Positions 4,967-18,836 of a DNA stretch of 60,376 nt are shown piece after piece. The DNA is from a virus (lineage: Duplodnaviria > Caudoviricetes): positions 1 through 60,376 of IMG/VR virus record IMGVR_UViG_3300047548_000760. The stretch is one strand, 5' to 3'. The position numbers and the translations under genes were made by a program. A model generated the notes under the pieces. That model did not search any database. It had not been told where the DNA came from and saw only the letters and a list, made by a program, of their open reading frames with translations. The number at the start of each line of letters is the position of its first letter. Position 1 is the first letter of the stretch.

Positions 4967-4993
4967 CCCCGAGCCTCATTGCCGAGCCTGCCC

Positions 4994-7900
4994 ATGCCAC
5001 TCGTCTTTCCCGATCAAGCCGCCCAGGCGGCCACGCGCCCGGCCTCTGACGCTGCCCAGGCGGCAGCGCAAGGGGTGACGCCCCAGGCCCAGCAACCGGC
5101 GCAGCCTGCCGGCCGGCTCGTGTTTCCGCGCGAGTTGTCTCTGCGGGATGCCGGGTCGATCGCGGCCGATATGGGCACCGCGCTCTGGGAGGGCGCCAAG
5201 AACACCGGCCGCATGCTGGGCGCCACCGGTAACACGGTGGGCGGGAATCTGTCGGGCGTGGACGAGCTTGCGCGATCGCAGGCCGCAGCCGAGGCGCAGT
5301 CACCGGACGCGAAGGCCCTGCTGATGCAGGAGATCCAGCGCCGCAAGGCCGCGAACCCTGATGCTGGGTGGCTGGACGTGATCAAGAACGTCGGCGCCTC
5401 GTTCATCGGTCAGCCCGAGGGCGCGGCGCAGTTTGTGGCCGAGCAGACCCCGAACACGGCGGTCAGCCTGGGCGCTGGCATTGCAGGCGCAAAAGGCGGC
5501 GCCGCACTTGGCAGCCTCATCATGCCCGGCGTGGGCACTGCAGTGGGCGGTGTCGCCGGCTTCCTGGGCGGCATGTTCCTGGGCAACGCCAGCCTGGAGA
5601 TCGGCGGCAAGGCCATGGAGAAGTCGCAGGATCAGGCCCGCACGGGCGGATCCCTGACGGCCGACGATGCAAGCGCTGCCATCCGCGAGGGTTCCGTCAA
5701 GGGCGGCGTCATCACGGCCGTCGATGCTGCGACCCTTGGCGCCGGCCGAGGCGTGGCGCGCCTGTTCAACAAGACCGCTATCGAGGCTGGCGCCCGCGCC
5801 GAGGCCCGAGTGCTTGCCGATGCTGGCGTGGATGTCACCAGCCGCGCTGCCATCGAGCGATCGCTTGCGGCGGACCCGGTGCTGCGCGCAACGGCGCAGG
5901 AGGCCGGCAAGGTAGCCGCTCAGTCTGCGTCCAAGATTGGCAGCCGAGCCGCCACGGGCGGAACGCTGTTGGGTATGGAGACGGTCGGCGAAGGCGCTGG
6001 TGAGTACCTGGGCGAGCTGGCCGCAACGGGCAAGGCCGACAAGTACGACGCGGTGATGGAGGCGATGGCAGGGCTTTCGCAGTCCGTGCCAGAGACCGCC
6101 TGGAGCATGCGTCAGTCGCAGGGCAACGACCTGAGTGCTCGCGGCATCGAGCGCGTTGGCGGGGATCTTCCGCCCGCAGCGCCCGCACCGGCGCCCTCTG
6201 AGCCGCCCGCACCGCCTGCGCCTCCAACCCCACCGGCCGCCCCGAACAACACGATCATCCCGCCTGCCGATGTGCCGCCGCTGGACCCCACAGCGCTGCC
6301 GCCCGACCTGGACGCACAGAACCGCGACCGCACGCGCTCGGCCAGCGTGCTGCAGATGCAGAAGATCGCGCAGAACCCGGACTACCTGCGCGCGGGCCCA
6401 TCCCGCTCGCCCGACACCGGCGCGCCGATGGTGTTCGCGCAGGGCGACGACACGAGCTTGTTCCCGAGCTTCACTCGCGGCCGTGAGGACGTGGCCGTGA
6501 TGTCCGACGGCCAGCGCGTGCCGTTCCAGTACGCGGTGGTCGATGCCAGCCTGCTGCAGCCGTCCAACTTTGCCGACGGCACGCCCAATCCGCTCTTCAA
6601 CAACGAGACGCCCGGCCTTGTGAAGGCCCTGAGCAACGCCCGCAGCGCAGGCCTGCGTGCTGCCTGGGCGCAGGGCACGGCATCGGGCTATGCGGCAGAC
6701 CTTGAGGCCGACACTAAGCAGCACGGAATCTCTGTCGAGGCGATCCGCTCGACGAGCAACCCAGTCCTGGTACGCCTGTACTCGCAGTCCTCGAATACCC
6801 CGGGCATGGCCGCCCGATCGCAGGGGCAAGGCCTGGGCATGTCGCCTGGGGAACTGGCCCGCCAGGATGCGCCGCTGATCGACGGTGGCCTGCTTGCCGT
6901 GTGGCAAGGCGGGGACGTGGCGGATGCCCGAAACCTGGACTTCGTGCGCGGGTTCGTCGGCCGGCTGCAGGGCACCGGCCAGGACCTTGCGGGGATGATG
7001 ACCCAGGCTGGCACGCTCTCGCCGGACGGGCGCAAGCGCATCCAGGCGGCTCTGGCCCAGTCGGCCTACGGCGACTCGGACCTGATCGCCGAGATGTTCG
7101 ACTCCACCGACACCGACATCAAGGCGATCGGCGAAGCGCTCAAGCTCGCCGCGCCCGAGTGGGCCGACATGCGCGACTCTGCGCGCAGCGGGGCGATTGA
7201 CCCTGCAGCCGACATCACGCCGGCCCTGCTGGATGCGGTGGCCATGGTGCGCCGTGCGCGCCAGCAGCGGCAGAGCCTGTCCGACCTTGCACGTCAGACC
7301 GACATCACGACGGGCCAGACGCCTGACCCGATGGTGCTGGGCGCCCTGCGCTTGCTGTACGGCGGGGAGTACCTCACGCGCCCGATGGGCCGCGACCGCA
7401 TGGCCGACTTCCTGCGGGAATACACGCGGCTGGCCAAGGGCATCACGGCCGACGCCGGCCTGTTCGGGGACGCCCCGGCGCCGCTGGACGTGCTCACCGC
7501 ATTGACGAAGGAGACCGCAACCGATGGACAGCAGCAACAACCCGGCGCAGCAGCCGGCACAACCCAGCAGCCCGGCGCGGGCCTCCAGCAACCCAATGGC
7601 GGCAGCAATCCTGGGGGCGATGCTGGTCCGGGAGGGGCAGCGGCAGTACGACCCGGCGACAACGCAGGCGGGGCACAACCTGCTGCGGGTGGCGCAGGAC
7701 CACTGGCCAACACCGATACCGCAGGACAAGCGGCTGCCCAAGGGGTAACTGCGCCCGGCAACCAGCCGATGGTCGGTGATGCGTTTGATCCGACTGGTTG
7801 GTCAGAGCAAGAGAACAAGATCAACAAGAAGACCGGGCAGCCCATGCTTGGCTCCGGGAGGGTTCGCTTCAAGCGCGCAGACGAACGCGGATTTGAGCAA

Positions 7901-10900
7901 AGCGTCGTTGTGCAGAACGGGGTGATCGTCACATCGAACTCGGTTTCTCCACTTGTTGAGCTGACGAACTCAAGCCTCGACTTTGATGCTCCTGTGCGTG
8001 GTCGCGTTCACGTTCTCAACTCGGATGTTCAGGGACTGGTCCTTACGTTTGTTCCGGAAGATTCGTCTGGCGCGACAGCCACAAAGATGAGTCCGCGAGC
8101 CGTCCAGCAATACAAGGACGGCGTTCCCATTGAAAAGATCACGGAGACGGAGTTCTCTGACGCTGGCGGCATCAAGCCGGACGGCTCGCGCACCCCGCAC
8201 ACGACCGTTGGAGCCCTGGTCAAGGGCCCGGCACCGGGCGCCCCGGTAAGCGCGCCCGCAACGACGCAAGGAGCTTCCGATGTACGACAAGAAGGGCAAG
8301 GGCGGCGGCAAGAAGAAGCGCTGACGCCAGAAGCCGGCGCGCCTGGGCAGCAGCCTGGGGCGCCGGCCGCAGCACAGACGCCCGCTCCAGCTCCTGCTCC
8401 GCGCACCCCTGAAGCTATGGGCGACGCACTCAGGCGGCGCATTCAAGGCGACGTCCAGGCCAAGAGAGACGGCGAAGCAGCCTACCAAAGCGGTGCCGAT
8501 CGCATCCCGCCCGAGTCGATGACTGCGCCATCGCAGCGAAGGATGTGGCTGGAGGGATACGACACGGCCGCGCCGGCCTCGTCGCCCGCACCAGCACCAG
8601 CGCCGACCCCGGCCGGTGGCGCCAACACCGTCTTCACCGAGGACGCTGCAGCGGCTGCCCGTGCGCGCCTGAAGGCCAAGCTGGGCCGGCTGAACTCCGG
8701 CATCGACCCCGAGACGATGCTGGACGGCATCACGCTCGCGGGCTACCACATCGAGCGCGGCGCGCGGACCTTTGCGGCCTACGCTCGCGCGATGGTCGAT
8801 GACCTGGGCGACGCCGTGAAGCCCTACCTCGTGTCCTGGTACTTGGCCGTGCGCAACGATCCGCGCGCATCTGACTTCAAGGCCGACATGGACAAGGCCG
8901 GCGCCGTTGAGGATGCGGACCTGGACGCGCTGTTGGCGAACAAGGGCAAGGCGCCCGAGGCCGCGTCAGCCGTTCAACCGTCCCTCAACACACCGGCCGG
9001 CCGCATGGCCCTGGCCCAGGTCATTGCCGACCGGTTCATCGGTGGCGACGGCTTCAAGACCATCATCGAGGCCCGCAAGTTCATCGCAGAGGCCACGGGC
9101 GAGAAGATCGAGGCCGGCACCCAGGCCGCGAAGCTGGCCGACGAGGCGATCGAGATGGCCGTGGTCATGGCCGGGCGCGAGATTGTCCAGGCCGCACGTG
9201 CCCAGGGCCGCAGCGACAGCGTCATCTACGACCGGCTGGTGAACCTGTACGACCTGCAGCCGACGCTGGGCGTGCGCACGTCCACCAGCGTGCGAGAGCA
9301 GGCCTACAGCACGCCCGTGCCCCTGGCCTTCCTGGCGTCTCGCCGGGCCCAGGTCGGGCCCGACAGCACGGTGGGCGAGCCCACGGCCGGCAACACCATG
9401 CTGCTGATCGAGGTCGACCCCGAGCGCGCTGCGGTCAACGAGCTCAACGCCGACCGGGCGGCCAACGCTCGCGCACTGGGTTTCACGGTGACCAGCCACG
9501 ACGCTGCGCGCCACCAGCTCGCGCCCGAGAAGTCGCTGGACCGGGTGGTGGCCAACCCGCCGTTCGGGGCAGTCAAGGGCGACGACGGGCAGACGGTGGT
9601 GTTCCCGGTGGCCTCGAACTACGGCACGCGCGAGATCGACCATGCCATCTCGTTCAAGGCCCTGGACGCCATGAAGGACGACGGATCGGCGGTGCTGATC
9701 CTGGGCGGCGTGGACGCCTCCAACGAGGAAGCGATCCGCGAGGGCTATCGGAGCAAGAGCAAACGGGAGTTCTACTTCCGGCTGTACGGTCTCTACAACG
9801 TGGTCGACCACTTCACGGTCGACGGCGGTCTGTATTCCAAGCAGGGAGCGGGCTACCCTGTGGATGTGGTTGTGATCCGGGGGCGCGGCAAGGCGACCCG
9901 TGCGATGCCGGCCGCTGAACTGCCCAAGCGGTACGACAACTGGGAAGCACTGAAGAAGGAGAAGCTCGATGGATCAACCGAAGCAACCGCAACTGGCGTG
10001 GTGCCCACCGGGCCTGCCACCGGAACTGGCCGCAGTGATGGTGCCCAAGGACAGCAGCCTGGAGCCGGGGGACTGGTGGATGGCGCTGGCCGACAGGGTG
10101 CAGGAACTGGTGGACAAGGAGCCGGACCCGGACGAGGCGGCGACGTGGGCGGCACGGTCGCTGGGACGCCCGGGGCTGAGGGACAGCCAGGACGCCGGGG
10201 AGGTGCTGGTGCAGCGCAACCTGGAACTGCGGACGGCCCTGACGCTGGACGTGACGGCGCAGCCCAAGCACCCGTTTCCGGCCAAGGCCCTCGTGGAGTC
10301 CGCGGCAACGCGCCGGGCGATGGAGGAAACCGACCTGGAGACGTGGGTGGAACTGGCGGCAGCCAGGGTGAGCGCGTCGAGTCTGGACTAAGCGATCGCC
10401 GGGGCCTGGAGCAGGAGACCGAGACCCAGGTCGAATACGCGCCCCAGTCGGGCGCCGCGTCGGTGGGCACGCTGGTGCCCCGCGCCATGCGCGAGTCCAT
10501 CGCAGCCTCGCTCAAGCGGGTGGCTGACTCGGTGGGCAACATCGACGAGTTCGTCGCGGAGAAGCTGAACTTCGATCCCGAGACGCTGCGGGCCAACTTC
10601 TCGGCCGAGCAGGTCGACGCCCTGGCGCTGGCGATCATGAGCGCCGAGGCCGGCAAGGGCTTCATCATCGGGGACCAGACCGGCATCGGTAAGGGCCGGG
10701 TCGTCGCGGCGATGCTGCGCTACGCGATGATCAACGAGAGGATTCCGGTGTTCGTCACCGAGAAGCCGAACCTGTACGCGGACATGATCCGCGACCTGGA
10801 CGACATCGGCATGGGCGACGAACTGCGGCTGCAGTCCAACAAGCCGCTGATCCTGGCCACCAACTCCAGCGAGCCCATCCCCTACGTCCTGCAGCGCAAG

Positions 10901-13900
10901 TCCGGCGACACGATTGTCGAGACCGAGCACACGCTGCGTGCACCCGGGGCCGGCGCTGACCTGGAAAAGTTCTTTGACCAGATCGCGGGCAGCCGCGACA
11001 TCGGCCCGTACAAGGTTGTCTTCACCACGTACAGCCAGCTGCAGACCGTCAAGGGCAAGGTCACGGCGCGCATGCGCATGGTGCAGTCCCTGGCCCAGGG
11101 CGGCTACATGGTCTTCGATGAGAGCCACAACGCGGGCGGCACGCAGATCACGCAACCCCGCACCAAGAAGGACCGCGACGCGGCCAAGGCCGGCGAGACC
11201 ACGACGGGCCGCTCCGGGTTCGTGCGCAGCCTCGTGCGCGTCTCGTCGGGCAGCTTCTTCTCGTCGGCCACCTACGCCAAGCGCCCCGACGTGATGGACC
11301 TCTACAGCAGCACCAACATGCTGCTGGCGGTGGACCGGCCCGCTGACCTTGCGCCGGCCATCATGCAGGGCGGCGTGCCCATGCAGCAGATCGTGGCGAC
11401 GATGCTGGCCGAAGACGGGCAGTACATCCGCCGCGAGCGCACGTTCGCGGGCGTGACCTACGAGACCCGGCCGATGACGGTGGACCGGCAGACGGCCGAG
11501 AACATGGCGCAGTCCATGCGCATGATCCTGGCCTTCTCGCGCGGCAAGGAAGCCGCCGTCAAGGCAATGCAAAAGGAGTTCGACCGCGAGGGCGCCATGG
11601 TGGGCGTGTCTGGCGGCGAGAAGACCTCGGTGCAGGGCGCCAACTTCGGCGCGATCATGCACAACCTCATCGACCAGATGCTGCTGTCGCTCAAGGCCAA
11701 GGAGTCTGTGGACTTCGCCATCGAGCGCCTGAAAGCCGGCGAGAAGGTCGTGCTGACGGTGGCCAACACGATGGGCTCGTTCCTGTCGGACTATGCCGAG
11801 GAGTTTGGCATCCGCCCTGGCGAGCCTGTCACGCTCAGCTTTGCGGACCTGTACCAGCGCTACCTTGAGAAGCAGCGCGTGGTGAAGATCAAGCGCCCAG
11901 GCGGACCCAAGAGCGGCGTGCCGTACCGGCTGACCGACTCCGACCTGGGCAGTGGTCTGGTGGCGCAGTACAACGATGTGGCGCGGTTCATCCAGGAAGC
12001 CGGCTTCGGCTCCGCGCCCATCTCCCCGATCGACTACATGCACCAGCGGCTGCGCGAGGCCGGCTACAAGACCGACGAGATCACGGGCCGCAGTGTCACG
12101 GTGAGCTACGCGGGCAAGGCTCCGGTCCTGGCATCGCGCAACGCCAACATCAAGCAGCGCCTGACAGCGATCCGCGGCTTCAACAGTGGCGCAATCGACG
12201 TGATCATCCTCAACCAGTCGGGCGCCACGGGTCTGTCCCTGCACGCTTCGGCCAAGGTCAAGGACCAGCGCAAGCGGCGCATGATCATCGTCCAGGCCGA
12301 GAAGAACATCGACACCCACATGCAGATGCTGGGTCGCGTGCACCGCACGGGTCAGGTGATCACGCCGGACTACACGCAGGCCATGGCCGACATCCCGGCC
12401 GAGGCCCGGCCGGCGTCGGTGCTGCTGAAGAAGATGGCCAGCCTGAACGCCAACACCACCGCCAGCCGCAAGAGCGCGGTGACGGCCGAGGGCGTCGTGG
12501 ACTTCATGAACGACTACGGCGGTCAGGTGGCTGCCGAGTTCCTGCTGGACAACCCCGAGATCCACATGGACCTGGGCGGCCAGAAGGTGCTGGAGATCCC
12601 GGCCGAGGCCACGGAGGCCGACGAGGACCTGATCCGCAAGCTCACCGGCTACATCCCCATCCTGCCCATTGAGCAGCAGGAGGCGGTCTACCGCGACTTG
12701 GTGGACCGCTACAACGACTTGCTGGCCCGTGAGAACGCCATGGGCACCAACAAGCTCGAAGCCGCAGCGCTCGACCTGGGTGCGAAGACGGAAAAGCGCG
12801 AGCAGATCACGACCAAGCGCGACAGCCCCGTGCCGTCGCGGTTCGCCGAGCCGGCTTTCATGGAGCAGGTCGACGTGGCGCGCACGGTCAAGCCGCTGAC
12901 CAAGGCCGAGGTCCAAGAGGCCGTCAGCCAGTCGCTGGGCGGCAAGACCCCGCAGATGGTGGCCAACGAGCTCAACAGTTCCCTGGCGCAGCGCATGGAG
13001 CCGTTCCTCGTTGACCTGCAAAAGCGCCGCATGCAGCAGGGCGCCGACACGGACGGCGAGAAGCGCGCCCAGTTGGCCCAGGAGGTCGAGCGGCACCGGA
13101 TGCAGCAGTCGATCATCTCGGACCTGCTGTTTCGCTTCCAGATCGGGCAGGAGGTTTCGCTGCTGGACCAGCACCAGTCGGTGACCTACGGCGTCATCAC
13201 ATCGGTGTCGGCAGCCGGCAAGACCAAGAGCCCAGCCGCCGCTTCGGGCTGGAAGTTCACGATCGCCCTGGCCAACGGCGAGGCCCGCTCCATCACGCTG
13301 AGCGCCTCGCAGATCGGCAAGCAGTTCACCCTGCGCGCCGAGCGCGGGCCGGTGATCACGCTCAACCCCAGCACGAACGAGCCGGCCTCGATGAGGATCC
13401 CCGACCTGTTCGACGCCTACGGCGGCTCGGGCAACGTGCGGCGCGAGAAGCGCTGGATGGTCACGGGCAACCTGCTAGCGGGCTTTGCCTCGTACCCCGG
13501 TCAGATCCTCACGTACACCAAGGACGACGGATCAACCGGGCAAGGCGTGCTGATGCGTCGGGGCTTCGACTTTGAAAAGCGCAGGGGCGAGGCCAAGGCC
13601 TCGTTCCCTTCCGCAACCGTCATTCGCCTGTTCTTCACCGAGGCCGGCCGCAACGCCACGATCGGCACGCCCGATGGCGTGCTGCGCGTGAAGTGGTACG
13701 GCGGGAACTACCCGGCTGAGTTCGAGGTCGCCTCTTCCAAGCGCGAGGGCGGCAGGTTCTACCTGGATCGCGGCCTGACGGACGCCCTTGGGCGCGACTT
13801 CACCAAGGTCGGGCAGGTCATGCGCGCTGCGGTGACCGAAGACGACATGATGCGCGCCCTGGTCTACCTGATGACCGAGCGCGACGACGTAAAGCTCGAA

Positions 13901-16900
13901 GCGCAGACGAACAAGGACGTGGCCCGGCGCCTGCTGGGCCTGCCCGATGTGACGGAGTCGCAGGGCAAGCGCACGGGCGACAGACCGGCGTTCTCCCGCA
14001 CGGACGCGGCTACCAAGGGCATGACGGTTGCCGGCGTGCAGCGCGTCTCGGGCGGCGCGATGGCGGCCTGGGCAAACAAGCCCCGGCTGGTCGTGGCGCG
14101 CAACATCCAGGAGCCCAGCGTGCCGCAGGCGCTGCGCGACGAAGACGCACGCCAGCGCAAGGGTGGCGCAACGGGCGATGTGCGCGGCACCTTCTATGAG
14201 GGCGTCATCTACCTGTTCAGCGACCACCTGGGCAGCGACAAGGATGTGATCGAGACCCTGTTCCACGAGGGCCTGGGTCACTACGGCCTGCGGGGCGTGT
14301 TCGGAGATGCACTCAACGCGGTGCTGGACATGATCAACCTCGCGCGGCCGGACCTGATGCGCCCGAAGGCTGCCGAGTACGGAGCGGACCTGCGCAAGCC
14401 TGCGCAGCGCCGCAAGGTGGCCGAGGAGGTGCTGGCCAGCATGGCGCAGTCCGAGCCCTCGCTTGGGTTCGTGCGCCGGGCGGTGGCCGCGGTTCGCACG
14501 TGGCTGCGCACCAACGTGCCCGGCTTCGAGAAGTTGCGCCTGACCGACGACGAGATCATCCGCAGCTTCATCTTGCCGGCGCGCCAGTTTGTGATGCAAG
14601 GGCAGGCCCAGGCTGTTGCCAGCGCAGCAGGCGCCCAGGCGGCGTTTGCTCGCGCTTCCCAAGGCGGGCCCCGTCAGACTCCCGAGCAGCGCGCCGAGAC
14701 CATCCTGGCCACGCCCGTGACCCAGGCGCGGCCGCTTGATCGGGTGTTTCGCACTGTCTCGCGCATGACCGGCTTGGAGGCCGTGACCAACCGCATCTAC
14801 GGCCGGGCTGCCTACCTGCTGGATCGATTCACTCCTGAGACCGTCAAGGCCGGCATCGTCTCCGACTACGGCGTGCCCGAGGCGGTGATCGACATGCGCG
14901 TCATGCTGCAGGGCCGGCAGCGCCAGCAGTTGCGCCGCTCCGGCGAACTGGTGGACAAGCTGGCCAGCCTGACCCGCGAGGAGTCCCGGATTGCCTACGA
15001 GTGGATGAACATGGACGGCTCGGACCCCCGCGCCTACCTGTCCATGATGCAGGGCCTACCCGAGGAGTCCGTGCGGGTGCTGCAGGACGTGCAGCGCATG
15101 ATCGACGACCTGTCCAAGGAGGCGGTGCGCCTGGGCCAGCTGGACCCCAGGTCCTACGAGCGCTTCAAGTTCGCCTACCTGCGCCGGACATACGAGCGCT
15201 ACCTCGAAGAGTTGACCCCGCAGCAGCGGGCCAGCCAGCAGCGCGCCACCCGCATCCTGGGTGACCAGTACCGCATGCGCGGCTTGGTCGAGCCCGTGGA
15301 GATGGCCAAGATTAAGTCCGGGGACCCGGAGTGGTGGGGCCGCAAGGAGCGCGAGGGCAAGGGCGACACCGGTCTGGTGAACCAGAAGTTCATCAAGCTG
15401 GAGCGCCTGAAGCCCACGGGCGCCGGCACGATCCCGCTGCCGGGCATGACCGGCCGGCCCGATGGCAAGGTGCTTGAGGTGGTCTACTGGCCCGCCGATC
15501 GCGCCGTGCCTGCGAAGTACAGCGAGTGGCGCCAGAACGAGGTCTTTGAGGTCCGCGATGTGAAGGGCGGCAAGGTCATCCTGTGGCGCGACTTCACAAA
15601 GGACGAGCGCGAGGCCATGGGCGAGGTTGATGAGGCCCGCTTTGCGATCGCCCGCACGCTGCAGCGCATGGTCCACGATGTCGAGGTCGGGCGCTACCTG
15701 GAGGGCCTGTCCCAGAAGTACGCCAAGGCCGACGGCGACGAGATCGACGGCACCCTGGTGGAAGCCAGCGAGCACTGGCACCGGGCGTTCAAGCCGGGCG
15801 ACTGGGTGAAGGTGCCAGAGACCAAGATCACGGGCACGAGCGTGGCCAAGTACGGCAAGCTCGCCGGCAAGTACCTGCCGGGCCCGATCTGGAACGACGT
15901 GCGCTTTGCTGTGAACGGACCGTTCCAGCCGTTCGGCGAGGTCTACGGCAAGGTACTGTCGGCCTGGAAGGTGGCCAAGACGGCGCTGACACCGGCCGTG
16001 CACATGAACAACGTCATGGCCAACCTCGTGATGGCCGACTGGCACGAGGTGGGCGCGGCGCACGTGGGCAAGGCCCTGCGGATCATCCTGGCGGCCAACC
16101 AGCGCGACGGCAAGGGCGCACTTGGCAGCCTGGGCAACGTCGCTGCAAGCGGCGGCATCGCCGACCGCGAGGCGGCGCTGCAGATCATGAACCGCTACCG
16201 GGATGCGGGCGGCGACATCGGGTCATGGGCGACCCAGGAGATCGCCCGCGAGCAGATGGCCCCGCTGCTGGACGCTGTGCTGGAGGAGTTGGGGCGCAAC
16301 GGGGACGCCTCGGTGCAGGGGCAGATCGGCGTCATGGCGGCGCTGCAGCACTTGCTGCACCTGAAGCTGCCCGAGGCCTGGAGCGCGTTCAAGGCCAGCA
16401 AGCCGGCCACCGTCGCCGGCCGCGAGGCTCAGTCCATGATTGACCTGTATCAGGCCGAGGATGACGTGTTCCGGCTGGCGGCGTGGCTGGCAGCCAAGGA
16501 GCGCGGCCTGGATGACCTGCGCGCCGGCCGGGAGGCCCGCAAGTCCTTCCTGGACTACGACATCAACGCGCCCTGGATCGACGCGATGCGGCGCAGCGCG
16601 TGGCCGTTCATCTCGTTCACCTACCGCGCCGTGCCCATGCTCTTCGAGATCGCCGGCAAGCGACCGCACAAGCTGATGAAGCTGGCGGTGCTGGTTGGCG
16701 CCCTGAACATGCTGGGCGTGGCCATGTCCGGTGACGACGAGGACGAGGACGAGCGCCGTCGCCGCATGCTGCCCGAGGAAAAGGCCGGCAAGGTCTGGGG
16801 CATCGTGCCCAAGTTGATCCGCATGCCCTGGGACGACAAGAACGGCTCTCCGGTGTACCTGGACATCCGGCGCTTCGTCCCGGTGGGTGACATCGTGGAC

Positions 16901-17422
16901 ACCGGCTCCACTCAGGCGGCGCTGCCCGTGCCGCCCGGACTGATGCCCGGGGGCCCGCTGGTCATTCTGGGCGAGGTGCTGATGAACAAGAGCGCGTTCA
17001 CCGGCAAGCCGATCGTGCTGGGAACCGACACACCGACCGAAGTGGCCGGCAAGGTGTTCAGCCACCTCTACAAGGGATTCGTGCCGAACCTGCCGGGCTT
17101 GCCCGGCACTTACGCGACCGACGCCCTGGTCAACGCCGGCAGCGGCAAGACGGACGCCTTTGGGCGCCAGCAGTCGGTGGCCCAGGCGGTGGCCTCGTCA
17201 GTCGGGGTCAAGTTGGGCAGCTACCCCGAGGATGTGCTGCGGCGCAACACCATGGCGCGCGCGAGCGCCCAGGAGCGGGAGATCGAGACGGTGATGCGGG
17301 GGCTGCAGCGGCAGCGGCAGATGAATGCGATCAGCCAGGAAGAGTTCGACCGGAAGATCGAAGTGCAGCGGGAAAAGCTGCGCAAGCTGTCGCAGGAAAC
17401 GCGAGAAAAAGTGGCGCAGTAA
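4994..17422 (+). CDS. Giant DarB-like polyvalent virion/ejection protein (about 4,142 aa)
   Basis: N-terminal Gly-zipper TM region; ddrB/ParB-like domain (QNRDRTR..GAP); N6-adenine MTase (YSTP, EPTAGN, ANPPFG); Strawberry-notch-type SF2 helicase (GDQTGIGKGR, FDESHN, SGATGLSLH, QMLGRVHR); zincin-like HEGLGH; LPD38-like C-terminus. Confidence 0.9.
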   Translation: MPLVFPDQAAQAATRPASDAAQAAAQGVTPQAQQPAQPAGRLVFPRELSLRDAGSIAADMGTALWEGAKNTGRMLGATGNTVGGNLSGVDELARSQAAAEAQSPDAKALLMQEIQRRKAANPDAGWLDVIKNVGASFIGQPEGAAQFVAEQTPNTAVSLGAGIAGAKGGAALGSLIMPGVGTAVGGVAGFLGGMFLGNASLEIGGKAMEKSQDQARTGGSLTADDASAAIREGSVKGGVITAVDAATLGAGRGVARLFNKTAIEAGARAEARVLADAGVDVTSRAAIERSLAADPVLRATAQEAGKVAAQSASKIGSRAATGGTLLGMETVGEGAGEYLGELAATGKADKYDAVMEAMAGLSQSVPETAWSMRQSQGNDLSARGIERVGGDLPPAAPAPAPSEPPAPPAPPTPPAAPNNTIIPPADVPPLDPTALPPDLDAQNRDRTRSASVLQMQKIAQNPDYLRAGPSRSPDTGAPMVFAQGDDTSLFPSFTRGREDVAVMSDGQRVPFQYAVVDASLLQPSNFADGTPNPLFNNETPGLVKALSNARSAGLRAAWAQGTASGYAADLEADTKQHGISVEAIRSTSNPVLVRLYSQSSNTPGMAARSQGQGLGMSPGELARQDAPLIDGGLLAVWQGGDVADARNLDFVRGFVGRLQGTGQDLAGMMTQAGTLSPDGRKRIQAALAQSAYGDSDLIAEMFDSTDTDIKAIGEALKLAAPEWADMRDSARSGAIDPAADITPALLDAVAMVRRARQQRQSLSDLARQTDITTGQTPDPMVLGALRLLYGGEYLTRPMGRDRMADFLREYTRLAKGITADAGLFGDAPAPLDVLTALTKETATDGQQQQPGAAAGTTQQPGAGLQQPNGGSNPGGDAGPGGAAAVRPGDNAGGAQPAAGGAGPLANTDTAGQAAAQGVTAPGNQPMVGDAFDPTGWSEQENKINKKTGQPMLGSGRVRFKRADERGFEQSVVVQNGVIVTSNSVSPLVELTNSSLDFDAPVRGRVHVLNSDVQGLVLTFVPEDSSGATATKMSPRAVQQYKDGVPIEKITETEFSDAGGIKPDGSRTPHTTVGALVKGPAPGAPVSAPATTQGASDVRQEGQGRRQEEALTPEAGAPGQQPGAPAAAQTPAPAPAPRTPEAMGDALRRRIQGDVQAKRDGEAAYQSGADRIPPESMTAPSQRRMWLEGYDTAAPASSPAPAPAPTPAGGANTVFTEDAAAAARARLKAKLGRLNSGIDPETMLDGITLAGYHIERGARTFAAYARAMVDDLGDAVKPYLVSWYLAVRNDPRASDFKADMDKAGAVEDADLDALLANKGKAPEAASAVQPSLNTPAGRMALAQVIADRFIGGDGFKTIIEARKFIAEATGEKIEAGTQAAKLADEAIEMAVVMAGREIVQAARAQGRSDSVIYDRLVNLYDLQPTLGVRTSTSVREQAYSTPVPLAFLASRRAQVGPDSTVGEPTAGNTMLLIEVDPERAAVNELNADRAANARALGFTVTSHDAARHQLAPEKSLDRVVANPPFGAVKGDDGQTVVFPVASNYGTREIDHAISFKALDAMKDDGSAVLILGGVDASNEEAIREGYRSKSKREFYFRLYGLYNVVDHFTVDGGLYSKQGAGYPVDVVVIRGRGKATRAMPAAELPKRYDNWEALKKEKLDGSTEATATGVVPTGPATGTGRSDGAQGQQPGAGGLVDGAGRQGAGTGGQGAGPGRGGDVGGTVAGTPGAEGQPGRRGGAGAAQPGTADGPDAGRDGAAQAPVSGQGPRGVRGNAPGDGGNRPGDVGGTGGSQGERVESGLSDRRGLEQETETQVEYAPQSGAASVGTLVPRAMRESIAASLKRVADSVGNIDEFVAEKLNFDPETLRANFSAEQVDALALAIMSAEAGKGFIIGDQTGIGKGRVVAAMLRYAMINERIPVFVTEKPNLYADMIRDLDDIGMGDELRLQSNKPLILATNSSEPIPYVLQRKSGDTIVETEHTLRAPGAGADLEKFFDQIAGSRDIGPYKVVFTTYSQLQTVKGKVTARMRMVQSLAQGGYMVFDESHNAGGTQITQPRTKKDRDAAKAGETTTGRSGFVRSLVRVSSGSFFSSATYAKRPDVMDLYSSTNMLLAVDRPADLAPAIMQGGVPMQQIVATMLAEDGQYIRRERTFAGVTYETRPMTVDRQTAENMAQSMRMILAFSRGKEAAVKAMQKEFDREGAMVGVSGGEKTSVQGANFGAIMHNLIDQMLLSLKAKESVDFAIERLKAGEKVVLTVANTMGSFLSDYAEEFGIRPGEPVTLSFADLYQRYLEKQRVVKIKRPGGPKSGVPYRLTDSDLGSGLVAQYNDVARFIQEAGFGSAPISPIDYMHQRLREAGYKTDEITGRSVTVSYAGKAPVLASRNANIKQRLTAIRGFNSGAIDVIILNQSGATGLSLHASAKVKDQRKRRMIIVQAEKNIDTHMQMLGRVHRTGQVITPDYTQAMADIPAEARPASVLLKKMASLNANTTASRKSAVTAEGVVDFMNDYGGQVAAEFLLDNPEIHMDLGGQKVLEIPAEATEADEDLIRKLTGYIPILPIEQQEAVYRDLVDRYNDLLARENAMGTNKLEAAALDLGAKTEKREQITTKRDSPVPSRFAEPAFMEQVDVARTVKPLTKAEVQEAVSQSLGGKTPQMVANELNSSLAQRMEPFLVDLQKRRMQQGADTDGEKRAQLAQEVERHRMQQSIISDLLFRFQIGQEVSLLDQHQSVTYGVITSVSAAGKTKSPAAASGWKFTIALANGEARSITLSASQIGKQFTLRAERGPVITLNPSTNEPASMRIPDLFDAYGGSGNVRREKRWMVTGNLLAGFASYPGQILTYTKDDGSTGQGVLMRRGFDFEKRRGEAKASFPSATVIRLFFTEAGRNATIGTPDGVLRVKWYGGNYPAEFEVASSKREGGRFYLDRGLTDALGRDFTKVGQVMRAAVTEDDMMRALVYLMTERDDVKLEAQTNKDVARRLLGLPDVTESQGKRTGDRPAFSRTDAATKGMTVAGVQRVSGGAMAAWANKPRLVVARNIQEPSVPQALRDEDARQRKGGATGDVRGTFYEGVIYLFSDHLGSDKDVIETLFHEGLGHYGLRGVFGDALNAVLDMINLARPDLMRPKAAEYGADLRKPAQRRKVAEEVLASMAQSEPSLGFVRRAVAAVRTWLRTNVPGFEKLRLTDDEIIRSFILPARQFVMQGQAQAVASAAGAQAAFARASQGGPRQTPEQRAETILATPVTQARPLDRVFRTVSRMTGLEAVTNRIYGRAAYLLDRFTPETVKAGIVSDYGVPEAVIDMRVMLQGRQRQQLRRSGELVDKLASLTREESRIAYEWMNMDGSDPRAYLSMMQGLPEESVRVLQDVQRMIDDLSKEAVRLGQLDPRSYERFKFAYLRRTYERYLEELTPQQRASQQRATRILGDQYRMRGLVEPVEMAKIKSGDPEWWGRKEREGKGDTGLVNQKFIKLERLKPTGAGTIPLPGMTGRPDGKVLEVVYWPADRAVPAKYSEWRQNEVFEVRDVKGGKVILWRDFTKDEREAMGEVDEARFAIARTLQRMVHDVEVGRYLEGLSQKYAKADGDEIDGTLVEASEHWHRAFKPGDWVKVPETKITGTSVAKYGKLAGKYLPGPIWNDVRFAVNGPFQPFGEVYGKVLSAWKVAKTALTPAVHMNNVMANLVMADWHEVGAAHVGKALRIILAANQRDGKGALGSLGNVAASGGIADREAALQIMNRYRDAGGDIGSWATQEIAREQMAPLLDAVLEELGRNGDASVQGQIGVMAALQHLLHLKLPEAWSAFKASKPATVAGREAQSMIDLYQAEDDVFRLAAWLAAKERGLDDLRAGREARKSFLDYDINAPWIDAMRRSAWPFISFTYRAVPMLFEIAGKRPHKLMKLAVLVGALNMLGVAMSGDDEDEDERRRRMLPEEKAGKVWGIVPKLIRMPWDDKNGSPVYLDIRRFVPVGDIVDTGSTQAALPVPPGLMPGGPLVILGEVLMNKSAFTGKPIVLGTDTPTEVAGKVFSHLYKGFVPNLPGLPGTYATDALVNAGSGKTDAFGRQQSVAQAVASSVGVKLGSYPEDVLRRNTMARASAQEREIETVMRGLQRQRQMNAISQEEFDRKIEVQREKLRKLSQETREKVAQ
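7524..7748 (+). CDS. Nested +1-frame gene, 74 aa
   Basis: AAGGAG at 7508-7513; GC-rich third positions switch to this frame across a Gly/Gln/Ala linker of the host gene. Confidence 0.6.
   Translation: MDSSNNPAQQPAQPSSPARASSNPMAAAILGAMLVREGQRQYDPATTQAGHNLLRVAQDHWPTPIPQDKRLPKG
8280..8324 (+). CDS. Nested +1-frame basic micropeptide MYDKKGKGGGKKKR
   Basis: AAGGAG at 8268-8273; all codons are preferred ones (TAC GAC AAG GGC CGC) while the host frame uses GTA/CGA/CAA/GAA. Confidence 0.55.
   Translation: MYDKKGKGGGKKKR
9969..10391 (+). CDS. Nested +1-frame gene, 140 aa, globular and acidic
   Basis: AAGGAG at 9956-9961; strong GC3 bias in this frame; host frame is Gly-rich with GGA/GGT/ACT codons. 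Confidence 0.75.
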   Translation: MDQPKQPQLAWCPPGLPPELAAVMVPKDSSLEPGDWWMALADRVQELVDKEPDPDEAATWAARSLGRPGLRDSQDAGEVLVQRNLELRTALTLDVTAQPKHPFPAKALVESAATRRAMEETDLETWVELAAARVSASSLD

Positions 17423-17498
17423 GTGGGGGTTTGCGGACCGGACCCGCTTTTGCGGACCGGTCCACCCCTCACGACTCCTTGCGGAGCCGCATGTTTAC

Positions 17499-17545
17499 TG
17501 GCTCCCCGACCTGGGCTCGAACCAGGGACCTACGGATTAACAGTC
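17499..17545 (-). tRNA. 3' half of tRNA-Asn(GTT), the att core; not a full tRNA
   Basis: Reverse complement reads GACTGTTAATCCGTAGGTCCCTGGTTCGAGCCCAGGTCGGGGAGCCA (anticodon loop, T-arm, CCA); 5' half absent. Confidence 0.9.
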
Positions 17546-17599
17546 CTCGGTGGTTAGCCATATAAATCAAGCACTTAGCTCAAAATCCGGTCCGCAACC

Positions 17600-17613
17600 A
17601 TCCGTAAACGGAT
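17600..17613. promoter_or_regulatory. Operator-like palindrome ATCCGTAAACGGAT inside attP
   Basis: Identical to 56514-56527. Confidence 0.65.
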
Positions 17614-17644
17614 ACTCTAAGCCTTTGATTTCAAAAGATCTCGG

Positions 17645-18733
17645 TCACTGTTGCGGACCGGCTTTCCGGGCCGTTGGAGTGACCCTGTCGCCCAGGCGCA
17701 CGTAGTGCTCGGTCATGCGTATGTTCTTGTGGCCAAGCTGGCGCTGTGCGGCCTGTAGCCCGTCGGCGTCGGCCTTGTCGGTGCCGGCCTTGGCGCGCAG
17801 GTCGCGGAACTGGAAGGCTTCGATGGCGGTGGCCATCTCCTCATCGCCGGCCTTCCTGGCGATCTTGGCCGCCTTCTCTCTGGCGTCATCGAAGGCGTTG
17901 TCCAGGCCGTAGGCGGTCAGCCTAGAACCCTGCCGATTCACCACCAGGGCGAGGTCGAGCACGCGGTTTTGGCGCTTGCGCTCGGCGATCTCGGCCAGCT
18001 TCATGCCGAGGTCGTTGGGCCCGGTTGAACCTTCGAGCTCGATGCGCAGTTTCTTGGCGGTTTTGCCCTGACCGACTCGCAGGACGCCGTCGCGCACGTG
18101 GGTGGCGGACATCTTCAGCACGTCAGCCGGTCGCTGGCCGGTCAGGTAGGCGAGGTCGATCGCGTCCTTCAGCGGCTGACTGGCAGCGGCGTAGACGGCC
18201 TGCAGCACCTCGTCCTCGACGTAGATGTCCCGGCCCGTCTCCTTGAAGCCCTTGATGCCCGCGCAGGGGTTGGGCAAGGCGGTGACGCCCCAATCACGGG
18301 CCATGTTCCAGACGTGCGACAGCAAGGCCTTCTCGCGGTTGGCGCGGACCTTGGCCGTCTCGCCCCGCCACGTCAGGTACTGGCGCACGTGCTGCGGCTC
18401 GATGGCCTCGAAGGCGATGGGCGGGTCGTTGAAGAACTCCAGGAGCTTGGCCATCTCCTTGATGTTGTCGGACTGCGTGCGCGGGGCCTTGGTGGGAACC
18501 ACCCGCTGCAGGTACAGATCAGCCACGTCCTTGAAGGTGGTGACCGGCGCTGCCGAATCGTCCTTGGTCAGTTCGGCCCACTTCTTGATGGCAATCACGT
18601 AGTCGGGCCCGAGTGGGATCTCGCGGCGCGGCTTGCCCCCGGTGTCGAGGTAGTAGTACGTCTTCCCGCTCGGCTTGGTGCGCGCCCGCATGCCATCAGG
18701 CAAGTTTAAGTTCTTCGTGCGGCGGCGTCCCAT
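17645..18733 (-). CDS. int: Tyrosine integrase
   Basis: LTGQRPADV, FRDLRAK, LGH, TEHY catalytic pattern; MGRRRTKNLNLP arm-binding N-terminus. Confidence 0.95.
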   Translation of the reverse strand: MGRRRTKNLNLPDGMRARTKPSGKTYYYLDTGGKPRREIPLGPDYVIAIKKWAELTKDDSAAPVTTFKDVADLYLQRVVPTKAPRTQSDNIKEMAKLLEFFNDPPIAFEAIEPQHVRQYLTWRGETAKVRANREKALLSHVWNMARDWGVTALPNPCAGIKGFKETGRDIYVEDEVLQAVYAAASQPLKDAIDLAYLTGQRPADVLKMSATHVRDGVLRVGQGKTAKKLRIELEGSTGPNDLGMKLAEIAERKRQNRVLDLALVVNRQGSRLTAYGLDNAFDDAREKAAKIARKAGDEEMATAIEAFQFRDLRAKAGTDKADADGLQAAQRQLGHKNIRMTEHYVRLGDRVTPTARKAGPQQ

Positions 18734-18836
18734 GGCGTGCTTTGTAGCAAAAGTAGGCGCCAACCATACCCGGCGCGCGCAAGGCGCGTCGATGGGACGA
18801 TGATGGGATTAGGCTGGCTGCTGCCGGCCTGGGGGG

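Follow-up and report, generated by a model that had tools for sequence, protein, structure and literature searches.

The window analysed here, i.e. the whole stretch of 60,376 nucleotides, is an uncultured temperate phage of 60 kb which carries a giant gene of the polyvalent type (ParB / methylase / helicase). A first-pass annotation had placed three open reading frames (ORFs) in the +1 frame of this gene, and all three are present. The features of the locus are as follows.

4979–17422, plus strand: host gene, polyvalent protein of 4147 aa (from the ORF list)
7508–7513, plus strand: Shine-Dalgarno (SD) of ORF1, AAGGAG, 10 nt 5′ of the ATG
7524–7748, plus strand: nested ORF1, +1 frame, 74 aa, basic (pI 9.7), in the first Gly/Gln/Ala linker
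8268–8273, plus strand: SD of ORF2, AAGGAG, 6 nt 5′ of the ATG
8280–8324, plus strand: candidate nested ORF2, +1 frame, Lys/Gly-rich peptide of 14 aa (pI 10.4)
8336–8366, plus strand: conserved GC-rich element 3′ of ORF2, GGCGCGCC...GGCGCC, partly palindromic, recognised by nucleotide conservation
9950–10402, plus strand: linker 3 of the host frame (frame 0), rich in Gly and read through, recognised by stop counts and composition
9956–9961, plus strand: SD of ORF3, AAGGAG, within host K-E-K codons, 7 nt 5′ of the ATG
9969–10391, plus strand: nested ORF3, +1 frame, 140 aa, acidic (pI 4.5), filling the methylase-helicase linker

The giant protein combines a ddrB-ParB domain with an N6-methylase (NPPFG motif) and a Strawberry-notch-like helicase (AAA_34/Helicase_C_4); it also has a HEGLGH motif, and its C-terminal part is hydrophobic. 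Both motifs were read directly from the translation, and the Pfam matches are PF18763 (aa 445–600), PF13872 (aa 1885–2172) and PF13871 (aa 2366–2520). The host frame is uninterrupted across the region in 9/9 related viral loci, and over the whole gene the GC content at host codon positions 1/2/3 is 0.69/0.49/0.86.

All three start codons (ATG at 7524, 8280 and 9969) fall in the +1 frame relative to the host, each overlapping a host GAT codon (7523–7525, 8279–8281 and 9968–9970), so that the spacing described earlier, with AAGGAG 6–10 nt before such an ATG, is borne out by spacers of 10, 6 and 7 nt. The reported movement of the third-position GC bias from the host to the nested frame was also recovered by a per-position scan in all three regions, the GC maximum shifting to host position 1 (= nested position 3) in 7454–7828, 8204–8503 and 9929–10453 (for 10079–10228, 0.92/0.82/0.44 at host positions 1/2/3). 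ORF3 itself has GC1/2/3 of 0.75/0.50/0.87, resembling the real genes of the phage. By codon score ORF3 reaches +0.30 and ORF1 +0.18, against a +1-frame norm of −0.95 ± 0.16 elsewhere in the giant gene. A survey for AAGGAG-N5-10-ATG found 10 occurrences on both strands of the window, against 1.12 (sd 0.88) in shuffled sequences, and none of 100 shuffles attained 10; by coordinates, at least three of the remaining matches are ORF starts in the GC3-based ORF list. The giant gene has a fourth match in the +1 frame (16496–16514), which has no coding signal by codon score (0.65 bits/codon in the host frame vs −0.76 in the nested frame), so SD and ATG by themselves are insufficient, and it is the GC-phase shift which sets the three ORFs apart.

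The start, stop and protein of ORF3 are kept in 47 of 48 related loci with a locus GC of 38–70%; these loci give 32 distinct proteins, and the locus counts are not independent events because many loci are closely related. The ATG, stop and open frame occupy the same place in 10/10 first homologues and were found in 34/34 viral loci (GC 38–70%, each host frame open for 5.2–8.4 kb), and the pattern held in 10 of 11 metagenome loci, the exception being a short metagenome contig (L061). AAGGAG lies 5′ of the ATG in 33 of the 34 viral loci and AAAGGAA in the other (L033).

The identity of the ORF3 protein between relatives and the window is 40–84%, and nested-frame identity exceeds host-frame identity in all 496 pairs compared (means 0.525 vs 0.388). 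In plain Nei-Gojobori counts, which are biased in overlapping frames and whose absolute values should not be over-read, dN/dS over the ORF3 region in the six closest pairs was 0.16–0.40 in the nested frame and 1.12–1.65 in the host frame; only the nested/host asymmetry is robust, as constraint in one frame lowers dS in the other. Substitutions concentrate at nested position 3 (e.g. 13/12/28). In a sliding scan against two relatives of 88–89%, 7529–7828 and 9929–10378 were the only stretches flagged among well-aligned windows, and in a second clade the sole run of flagged windows was the ORF3 region. Among population variants taken from contigs of independent metagenome runs, 6/6 of those listed for ORF3 leave the nested protein unaltered but alter the host residue, and none of those listed is a frame-breaking indel. 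On this comparative evidence ORF3 is certainly a real embedded gene, protein-coding and under purifying selection.

Over ORF3 the host frame encodes 48 Gly, 19 Ala and 12 Pro among 141 residues. It has no stop in 29/29 distinct sequences, and the third frame has 5–22 stops. Unbiased synonymous codons for ORF3 would yield 5.9–8.6 host stops, 12–16% Gly and 17–21% hydrophobic residues, against 0 stops, 16–35% Gly and 6–14% hydrophobic residues observed. Shuffling of the own codons of ORF3 left a stop-free host frame in only 2–80% of trials, a control which is weak for GC-rich members (60–80% stop-free in the window and L025). Synonymous codon choice in the nested frame is therefore biased towards a host frame which is open, Gly-rich and poor in hydrophobic residues. 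At the level of sequence comparison, the host frame over ORF3 and ORF1 is demonstrably held stop-free and otherwise almost unconstrained; since the constraint lies in the nested frame, the Gly/Ala/Gln/Pro-rich linker is mainly the shadow of the nested gene. The low complexity noticed earlier in the host frame is thus present, but it is not an independent feature, being largely a by-product of a G-ending gene for an acidic protein read one base earlier (a nested NNG codon followed by GNN gives GGN, i.e. Gly, in the host frame).

The AlphaFold2 model of ORF3, made with an alignment of 76 sequences, predicts a compact alpha/beta fold (pLDDT 95.0, pTM 0.88). No fold was matched significantly (the lowest Foldseek E was 0.71 in PDB and 0.25 in BFVD, the top VIA Z 3.5), no family match was obtained, and searches of ORF1 and ORF3 against Pfam, PHROGs, NCBIfam and PADLOC gave no nuclease or other mobility domain. 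The family, with 158 clusters at 50% identity (E ≤ 0.001), is consistently acidic (pI 4.05–5.35 in 32 distinct members). None of the 150 proteins listed exceeds 425 aa, so that among them there is no giant protein with the domain in frame; it also occurs in a T5orf172 fusion (NCBI protein, Piscinibacter defluvii), in an ankyrin-repeat fusion and in two-domain forms of 330–350 aa. The cultured Bacteroides phage BS-TP4 has an equivalent unannotated ORF at the same junction. In its clade the nested ORF has an A-rich stretch upstream and no SD, its ATG lies at the equivalent host K-E-K-x-N-G, and dN/dS, to be read for asymmetry as above, is 0.13–0.32 in the nested frame vs 1.18–3.75 in the host frame; its homology with ORF3 is by position only (hhalign probability 2.7%). 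Translation signals follow the host, with an SD in SD-using lineages and none in the Bacteroides phage clade.

For ORF1, GAAGGAG is kept 5′ of the ATG in 5/5 GC-rich relatives, and 15 relatives were found in the databases. In close pairs dN/dS is 0.16–0.30 in the nested frame vs 0.86–1.53 in the host frame, again a matter of asymmetry, with substitutions at nested positions 1/2/3 of 8/9/19, 6/6/17 and 4/6/10; three of the four population variants listed are silent in the nested frame. A divergent phage (L050) has a copy of 42% identity, again nested after the same host motif, with the upstream sequence ACAAGGAG. The counterpart in L004 has an SD and an ATG, its protein is unalignable and its dN/dS is ~1. 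The AlphaFold2 model gives a helical hairpin at residues 24–59 (mean pLDDT 71.7). On these comparisons, which cover few lineages, ORF1 is very probably protein-coding under purifying selection and a second embedded gene.

ORF2 may be a third embedded gene. Its SD, ATG and TGA are invariant in all three lineages which have the linker (the window, L004 and L011), and indels between start and stop leave both frames open. Its codon-usage score is +1.36 bits/codon in the nested frame vs −0.88 in the host frame, and none of 3567 control windows of 14 codons attains either value. No homologue was found beyond the three lineages, and a chance origin is possible. Nucleotide conservation continues past the stop codon into the element at 8336–8366, which is nearly invariant in the three lineages while the flanking domains have only 58–59% protein identity; the conservation of this element is unexplained by the nested ORF.

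We consider it highly likely from the sequence that +1-frame genes are embedded in the linkers between the domains of the giant gene; one is certain, a second very probable and a third possible. For the earlier proposal of dual-coding linkers with small genes, the comparative data give strong support at ORF3 and good support at ORF1; at ORF2, with only three comparable lineages, it may hold. That the ORFs are chance open frames of a GC-rich genome, with the GC shift a by-product of a low-complexity Gly/Ala/Pro linker, is hardly credible. In its favour, long alternative frames are common at 66% GC; of the 104 ORFs of at least 150 aa in the window the majority are plainly spurious, codons for Gly, Ala and Pro push up GC at positions 1 and 2, and the match at 16496–16514 is one spurious case. 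However, phages of 38–50% GC, where long alternative frames are rare and the third frame has 14–22 stops, keep the ORF3 frame open with an unchanged start and stop; its protein is conserved at 40–47% identity, the fall of host GC3 to 0.44–0.56 is not explained by linker composition, and the asymmetric dN/dS, the six nested-silent variants listed and the fold predicted at pLDDT 95 point the same way. For ORF3 and ORF1 we regard a chance origin as ruled out by the comparative data. A programmed +1 frameshift near AAGGAG, by which a shortened methylase would carry the ORF3 domain as a fusion, is highly improbable. Internal SD-like sequences are known to stimulate frameshifting (prfB, dnaX), the nested frame is open far upstream in a few relatives (e.g. 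L003, from 6395), and gene callers gave "extended" forms of 178–235 aa. Yet the ATG is immediately preceded, in most loci, by a stop in the nested frame (TAA/TAG/TGA-ATG), so that a shift would need to occur at or after the ATG; the ATG is kept in every locus examined though the overlapped host residues vary (D-G, N-G, N-D, N-E, D-E), the SD-to-ATG spacing fits an initiation site, no slippery motif, host-frame stop or rare codon was seen at the ORF3 site in the window, and in the Bacteroides phages the version present lacks an SD altogether.

Two further readings accept the genes as real. One takes them as selfish mobile insertions of the ShiLan type, open in the host frame and hiding an out-of-frame gene for their own spread by homing, which we judge very unlikely. 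The segment 7741–8399, from ORF1 to the element downstream of ORF2, is replaced in the contig of a near relative, and L003 and L006 either lack it or have a different one, so that linkers coincide with recombination joints. There is also a precedent in a phage methylase gene, where, in the available portion of the report, an in-frame-open insertion hides an HNH endonuclease encoded out of frame and its reading in the host frame is regarded as a tolerated loop (PMC11855218). The likeness is that a host-frame-open stretch of a methylase-containing phage gene hides a protein gene of another frame; as far as that portion describes them, however, such elements are sporadic and actively homing, with an HNH nuclease and without a recognisable ribosome-binding site (PMC11855218), whereas ORF3 has a canonical SD-ATG and no match to a nuclease or any other family or fold. 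ORF3 is moreover fixed at one junction in the homologues examined and diverges in step with the flanking domains and the host gene, which indicates vertical descent and not sporadic homing; Pfam, PHROGs, NCBIfam and PADLOC brought up no nuclease or mobility domain in ORF1 or ORF3, and the fold searches yielded nothing significant. The other reading, in which the nested genes are independent anti-defence or host-takeover effectors using the linker as spare coding space, is unlikely but deserves weight. The ORF3 family is acidic, as are several small phage anti-restriction DNA mimics. The ORF3 domain is joined elsewhere to effector-like modules (T5orf172/GIY-YIG and ankyrin), and polyvalent proteins are collections of counter-defence modules according to the part of the source available (PMC5512222). 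None of the results speaks against it; the strict methylase-helicase position over deep divergence suggests a tie to the junction, without proving one.

Embedded genes as such are an already known kind; no earlier description of the ORF3 family or of the linker arrangement was found in the literature. In phage P1, the methylase-helicase anti-restriction protein DarB works with the small proteins DdrA, Ulx and Hdf (about 120–200 aa), which are needed for the incorporation of DarB into capsids. The giant protein of the window unites DdrB-like (ddrB-ParB, HExxH) and DarB-like modules, but the small P1 genes are separate and non-overlapping in the P1 gene layout; P1 darB has no Gly-rich linker and no credible nested ORF, and the ORF3 profile resembles neither DdrA (hhalign probability 0.2%) nor Ulx (1.0%) in sequence. 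In phage lambda, Rz1 is embedded in Rz in the +1 frame of the same strand and has a start of its own; neither product is dispensable. These are two-component spanin genes in the portions of the sources available (PMC5295617, PMC6139136). The present genes are likewise complete within another gene, on the same strand, in the +1 frame and with their own starts. Rz and Rz1, however, are both lysis proteins which bind each other, whereas here the host is a multi-enzyme protein of 4147 aa, the nested genes are confined to linkers between domains, constraint falls on the embedded frame with the host frame nearly free, and there is no lipoprotein signal or lysis context. As in the overlapping genes of phiX174 and RNA viruses, two proteins come from one DNA stretch, and in overprinting an ordered, conserved frame is typically paired with a disordered and fast-evolving one, as the available part of the source has it (PMC8227390). 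The usual case is a new disordered protein on an old gene, whereas here the host linker appears to be younger and disordered and the nested gene older and folded.

For the embedded genes we propose that ribosomes would initiate internally and independently at the SD-ATG of each on the giant-gene mRNA, while ribosomes in frame 0 would read through and link the domains into one polypeptide. Of the options raised in the first-pass annotation, engulfment of small genes as the polyprotein grew by fusion is favoured, because the nested frame has genome-typical codon usage, because purifying selection sits in it and because the ORF3 domain is also found in other architectures. We lean towards the small genes predating the fusion, the giant gene having grown by reading across them in the other frame; such growth would keep the small genes and lock them genetically to the enzyme domains. 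The acidic ORF3 protein, thought not to be an enzyme, is tentatively, at somewhat under even chances, an accessory to the giant protein, or an adaptor for it, within the producing cell, where it could act as a folding helper, a packaging helper or an inhibitor. One stretch of DNA would in this way supply both a linker and a separate small protein.

The window, a complete IMG/VR virus record of 60,376 bp with 66% GC, comes from a temperate tailed phage, whose genes include, besides an integrase, those for a 2087-aa tail-fibre-like protein, an internal virion protein, the major head protein, the portal and the large terminase. The features on which the analysis is centred are as follows.

4979-17422, + strand: giant host ORF, 4147 aa
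7524-7748, + strand: ORF1, nested +1-frame ORF in linker 1, 74 aa
8280-8324, + strand: ORF2, nested +1-frame ORF in linker 2, 14 aa
9969-10391, + strand: ORF3, nested +1-frame ORF in linker 3, 140 aa
17648-18763, - strand: integrase gene of the phage

The giant protein has Pfam matches to ddrB-ParB and to an AAA_34/Helicase_C_4 helicase of the Strawberry-notch type, and its translation shows two further motifs, the methylase NPPFG and HEGLGH. As in the polyvalent proteins of Iyer et al. (2017), which unite conflict-related domains of several types (ParB-like, DNA methylase, SNF2/Sno-type helicase, peptidase), several such domains are joined here in one phage polypeptide, and the setting is that of a phage (integrase, capsid, portal and terminase are present). 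In phage P1 the modules are split over DdrB and DarB, whereas here both are united. The giant gene is among the few + strand genes, and because its end is about 220 nt from the convergent integrase gene (17422-18763 region) it lies at the prophage edge beside the integration module.

The first-pass annotation had proposed that three ORFs in one +1 frame are nested in the linkers of this gene, and the arrangement was recovered: all three lie wholly inside 4979-17422 on the same strand, their ATGs (7524, 8280 and 9969) each overlap a host GAT codon, and AAGGAG stands 10, 6 and 7 nt ahead of the ATGs of ORF1, ORF2 and ORF3, respectively. The move of the GC bias between frames was reproduced too, the GC content of host codon positions 1/2/3 passing from 0.69/0.49/0.86 gene-wide to about 0.9/0.8/0.45 in 7454-7828, 8204-8503 and 9929-10453. 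The window contains 10 instances of the pattern AAGGAG-N5-10-ATG where 1.12 would be expected, 0 of 100 shuffles give as many as 10, and among the remaining matches at least three are at ORF starts of the GC3-based ORF list (coordinates compared by eye). The giant gene holds one more AAGGAG-N-ATG, its fourth, at 16496-16514 (+1 frame), which carries no coding signal, was used as the negative control and is probably due to chance. That site leads into an Arg/Ser/Pro-rich stretch within a 78-codon ORF (16440-16676). A simple scan of 7000-10700 found no internal sigma-70-like promoters.

Judged from the sequence comparisons, ORF3 is a real gene. A first set of homologues was obtained by searching viral contigs by protein with the flanking host domains, giving nine loci of 47-89% identity in which the giant frame is open throughout. 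In all ten sequences (the window and the nine loci) the linker can be read through in the +1 frame, the ATG and stop are at homologous places and the proteins can be aligned, with invariant residues including W11, P13, R43, N84, F103-P104 and W126. Searching with the ORF3 alignment extended this to 34 viral loci of 38-70% GC, many of them close relatives of one another, and ORF3 is nested in every one, within a host frame open for 5.2-8.4 kb. The conservation of Shine-Dalgarno (SD) sequence, start and open frame in homologous linkers, on which the first-pass annotation had partly staked its proposal, was borne out: AAGGAG precedes the ATG in 33 of the 34, and in most loci a nested-frame stop lies directly before the ATG. 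The same pattern is present in 10 of 11 metagenome loci, the exception being the 2.1-kb contig L061, whose frame is broken. In no other locus is the host frame interrupted across ORF3; L061 does have the SD-ATG sequence, shifted out of register, and this points to an indel of 1 nt or a mistake in assembly.

The per-frame substitution analysis also named in the first-pass annotation gave, for the six closest ORF3 pairs, a nested-frame dN/dS of 0.16-0.40 and a host-frame dN/dS of 1.12-1.65, these being Nei-Gojobori counts, which are biased where frames overlap (PMC4316641). The substitutions in these pairs are concentrated at nested position 3, and in 496 of 496 pairs identity is higher in the nested than in the host frame; an apparent host-frame "motif", GNRPGDVGG, is the shadow, or host-frame reading, of the nested ETDLETWVE. 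When a sliding scan was made against two close relatives, only 7529-7828 and 9929-10378 were flagged among well-aligned windows, and in a scan of the L008-L010 clade the ORF3 region gave the sole run of flagged windows, together with one isolated window. Independent freshwater metagenome contigs over the region list no frame-breaking indels. Among the 40 population variants listed out of 70, all six in ORF3 are nested-synonymous and change the host amino acid, while 20 of 30 in host-only sequence are host-synonymous. The composition agrees: GC1/2/3 of ORF3 is 0.75/0.50/0.87, matching real genes of this phage, and its codon score is +0.30 bits/codon against a +1-frame norm of -0.95 +/- 0.16.

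The host frame over ORF3 carries no stop in 29 of 29 distinct sequences, while the third frame has 5-22. If the ORF3 protein is written in unbiased synonymous codons, the computed host frame contains 5.9-8.6 stops, with Gly at 12-16% and hydrophobic residues at 17-21%; the real one has no stops, 16-35% Gly and 6-14% hydrophobic residues, and this is true even where locus GC is 38-47%. As its composition indicates, the host frame is thus selected too, solely for staying open and flexible. Being stop-free, Gly-rich and poor in hydrophobic residues beyond the synonymous expectation, it makes the ORF3 region truly dual-coding: the amino-acid sequence of the region is set by the nested gene, and the synonymous sites of the nested gene are shaped by the linker.

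The sole cultured relative found via the flanking domains is Bacteroides phage BS-TP4 (33% identity; host Bacteroides salyersiae), in whose record the giant CDS is the only feature annotated at the methylase-helicase site. Its methylase-helicase linker holds a +1 ORF of 119 aa, the longest alternative-frame ORF in 13.8 kb.

L062 (BS-TP4, PQ571277) 6665-7024: unannotated nested ORF of 119 aa inside the giant CDS, under purifying selection

In PQ571277 numbering this ORF, its stop counted in, is at 10032-10391. Against metagenomic relatives of BS-TP4, dN/dS is 0.13-0.32 in the nested frame and 1.18-3.75 in the host frame. In BS-TP4 as in the window, base 2 of the nested ATG coincides with base 3 of a host Asp/Asn codon. 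The nested ATG overlaps the equivalent host K-E-K-x-N-G codons, and the sequence upstream is A-rich and has no SD, as Bacteroidota translation initiation would need. The nested product is acidic (pI 4.4). Its comparison with the ORF3 profile gave no significant homology, and the equivalence with ORF3 is therefore one of position. In phage P1, no similarity of DdrA or Ulx to the ORF3 profile A2 was detectable with hhalign (probability 0.2% and 1.0%), and darB, checked for a comparable nested ORF, has none. The P1 record (AF234172) annotates at 26577-26975 an opposite-strand ORF inside ddrB, "iddB"; it is another nested ORF in a gene of the Dar system, at a position unrelated to ORF1-ORF3.

The proteins of the ORF3 family are of 126-154 aa and acidic (pI 4.05-5.35, 32 distinct members). 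From an alignment of 76 sequences, AlphaFold2 predicts for ORF3 a small beta hairpin and six helices (pLDDT 95.0, pTM 0.88). An exhaustive profile search gave 158 clusters at 50% identity; all 150 listed proteins have at most 425 aa, so the ORF3 domain is not seen in-frame inside a giant protein. It occurs in other architectures, such as an NCBI protein of Piscinibacter defluvii (WP_128000194.1) with a transmembrane/T5orf172/zinc-ribbon N-terminus, proteins with ankyrin repeats and proteins extended at the C-terminus by a conserved part of about 200 aa, while the "extended" forms of 178-235 aa appear to be the nested frame read farther upstream over the conserved methylase end. Neither ORF3 nor ORF1 has a match in Pfam, PHROGs, NCBIfam or PADLOC, and ESM Atlas look-ups for both gave nothing significant. 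The same holds for the ORF3 profile against PDB sequences (best E 0.16) and for the fold searches (Foldseek best E 0.71 in PDB and 0.25 in BFVD; VIA-align wide best Z 3.5). Among cultured phages and plasmids no near-identical DNA was found and tblastn of ORF3 had no match; GTDB genome contigs searched with the ORF3 profile and the 330-350-aa forms, and viral contigs searched with the queries P0071, P0135 and alignment A9, also gave none. When a complex between the ORF3 protein and its neighbouring methylase and helicase domains was predicted, without controls, the score was 0.00, which weighs neither way.

ORF1 is supported as well. Its SD and ATG are kept in five of five GC-rich relatives. 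Close pairs give a nested-frame dN/dS of 0.16-0.30 and a host-frame value of 0.86-1.53, and in the comparison with L011, a relative of 58% identity, the nested frame has 0.41-0.67. Fifteen members of the family are in the databases, a divergent basic subgroup among them; one representative of this subgroup, in locus L050 (42% identity), is likewise a nested ORF with an SD, placed right behind the host motif seen here, GLFG..P.P.D[IV]L, where the host frame stays open for 6.1 kb. Three of the four listed population variants in ORF1 are nested-synonymous. Residues 24-59 are predicted to form a helical hairpin between disordered tails (mean pLDDT of the model 71.7), and the counterpart in locus L004 has the signals and a protein that cannot be aligned.

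ORF2 encodes 14 Lys/Gly-rich residues in a linker present in three lineages only. Its SD, ATG and TGA are invariant in all three, and the indels between start and stop leave both frames open; the codon score is +1.36 bits/codon nested against -0.88 host, and 0 of 3567 control windows reach either value. The nucleotide conservation does not end with the stop codon and takes in a GC-rich, partly palindromic element.

8336-8366, directly 3' of ORF2: GC-rich, partly palindromic element (GGCGCGCC...GGCGCC), with near-invariant nucleotides in three lineages

The proteins flanking this element are merely 58-59% identical among those lineages. An upstream GGCGCCCC, identical in all three sequences, could pair with it across ORF2. 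Searching by the element for additional homologues of the region returned only the two known contigs. In our estimate, ORF2 is about as likely as not to be translated and functional.

Parts of this region are variable. In an otherwise closely matching contig from an independent lake metagenome run, 7741-8399 and 8578-8982 are exchanged for 764 and 2058 unrelated letters, and 7750-8500 is absent or different in the related contigs L003 and L006. The break points are the end of ORF1 and a place just past the conserved element downstream of ORF2; with break points at linkers, domain cassettes therefore seem to be exchanged there. Linkers 1 and 2 enclose a host domain (7754-8203) that has no Pfam match, is unusually low in GC3 for the giant gene (0.54-0.74 against 0.86 gene-wide) and may be a recently acquired cassette.

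As in embedded same-strand genes of the Rz/Rz1 kind, ORF1, ORF2 and ORF3 are nested in another gene (ORF3 in 34 of 34 viral loci), have putative initiation signals of their own (AAGGAG 6-10 nt ahead of the ATG, kept for ORF3 in 33 of 34 viral loci) and, for ORF3 and ORF1, show purifying selection on the embedded frame. The best reading is that ribosomes would initiate separately at each nested SD-ATG on the giant mRNA, while frame-0 ribosomes would read through the nested genes. Entry into the nested frame by a programmed ribosomal frameshift, which calls for a slippery codon and a nested frame open upstream, is unlikely, because in most loci a nested stop closes the frame directly ahead of the ORF3 ATG, that ATG is invariant although the host residues vary, and no slippery motif was seen. 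The closest published arrangement (PMC11855218) is the ShiLan-type homing insertion, open in the host frame of a phage methylase gene and hiding an HNH endonuclease encoded in another frame. It was rejected for ORF3, which is fixed, vertically inherited and without a nuclease: no HNH or other homing nuclease is predicted in ORF1 or ORF3 from Pfam, PHROGs, NCBIfam and PADLOC, and where the ShiLan type, as described there, is sporadic, the ORF3 linker is in every homologue examined. The segment 7741-8399, which holds ORF2, is variable among relatives.

We favour, with somewhat better than even confidence, that the small genes are older than the fusion and were then engulfed, because the nested frame has genome-typical codon usage and constraint and the domain occurs in other architectures. 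From its position, acidity and modular use, the ORF3 product may serve the giant protein as accessory or adaptor, to which we give slightly less than an even chance; the same features could belong to an independent effector, which we consider somewhat less likely. As a tentative wider proposal, giant polyvalent proteins might have been built by second-frame reading across older small genes, the shadow serving as a ready Gly-rich flexible linker and the engulfed gene still being expressed, its product an obligate partner (adaptor, packaging helper or inhibitor) that recombination could not separate from the enzymes.

The full-text literature searched holds no account of genes embedded in the linkers of polyvalent proteins, and in Iyer et al. 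(2017) the words "overlap", "frameshift" and "linker" do not occur. The nested genes have been overlooked by gene callers and GenBank annotation, though the ORF3 family alone counts 158 clusters at 50% identity and its fold is confidently predicted and without a match. The ORF3 linker gives a concrete route for the origin and upkeep of a low-complexity linker, as the frame shadow of another gene whose synonymous sites are recruited for keeping it open and flexible. The arrangement is present in a cultured phage. Polyvalent DarB-like proteins are central to the counter-defence of phages and plasmids, and the obligatorily linked small protein at their methylase-helicase junction, whose conservation reaches from phages of the Proteobacteria type to one of Bacteroides, is a strong candidate for a component so far missing from the account of their folding, control or packaging. 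If the engulfed genes do encode obligate partners, a whole class of unannotated accessory genes may lie concealed in the linkers of many giant proteins of phages and plasmids.
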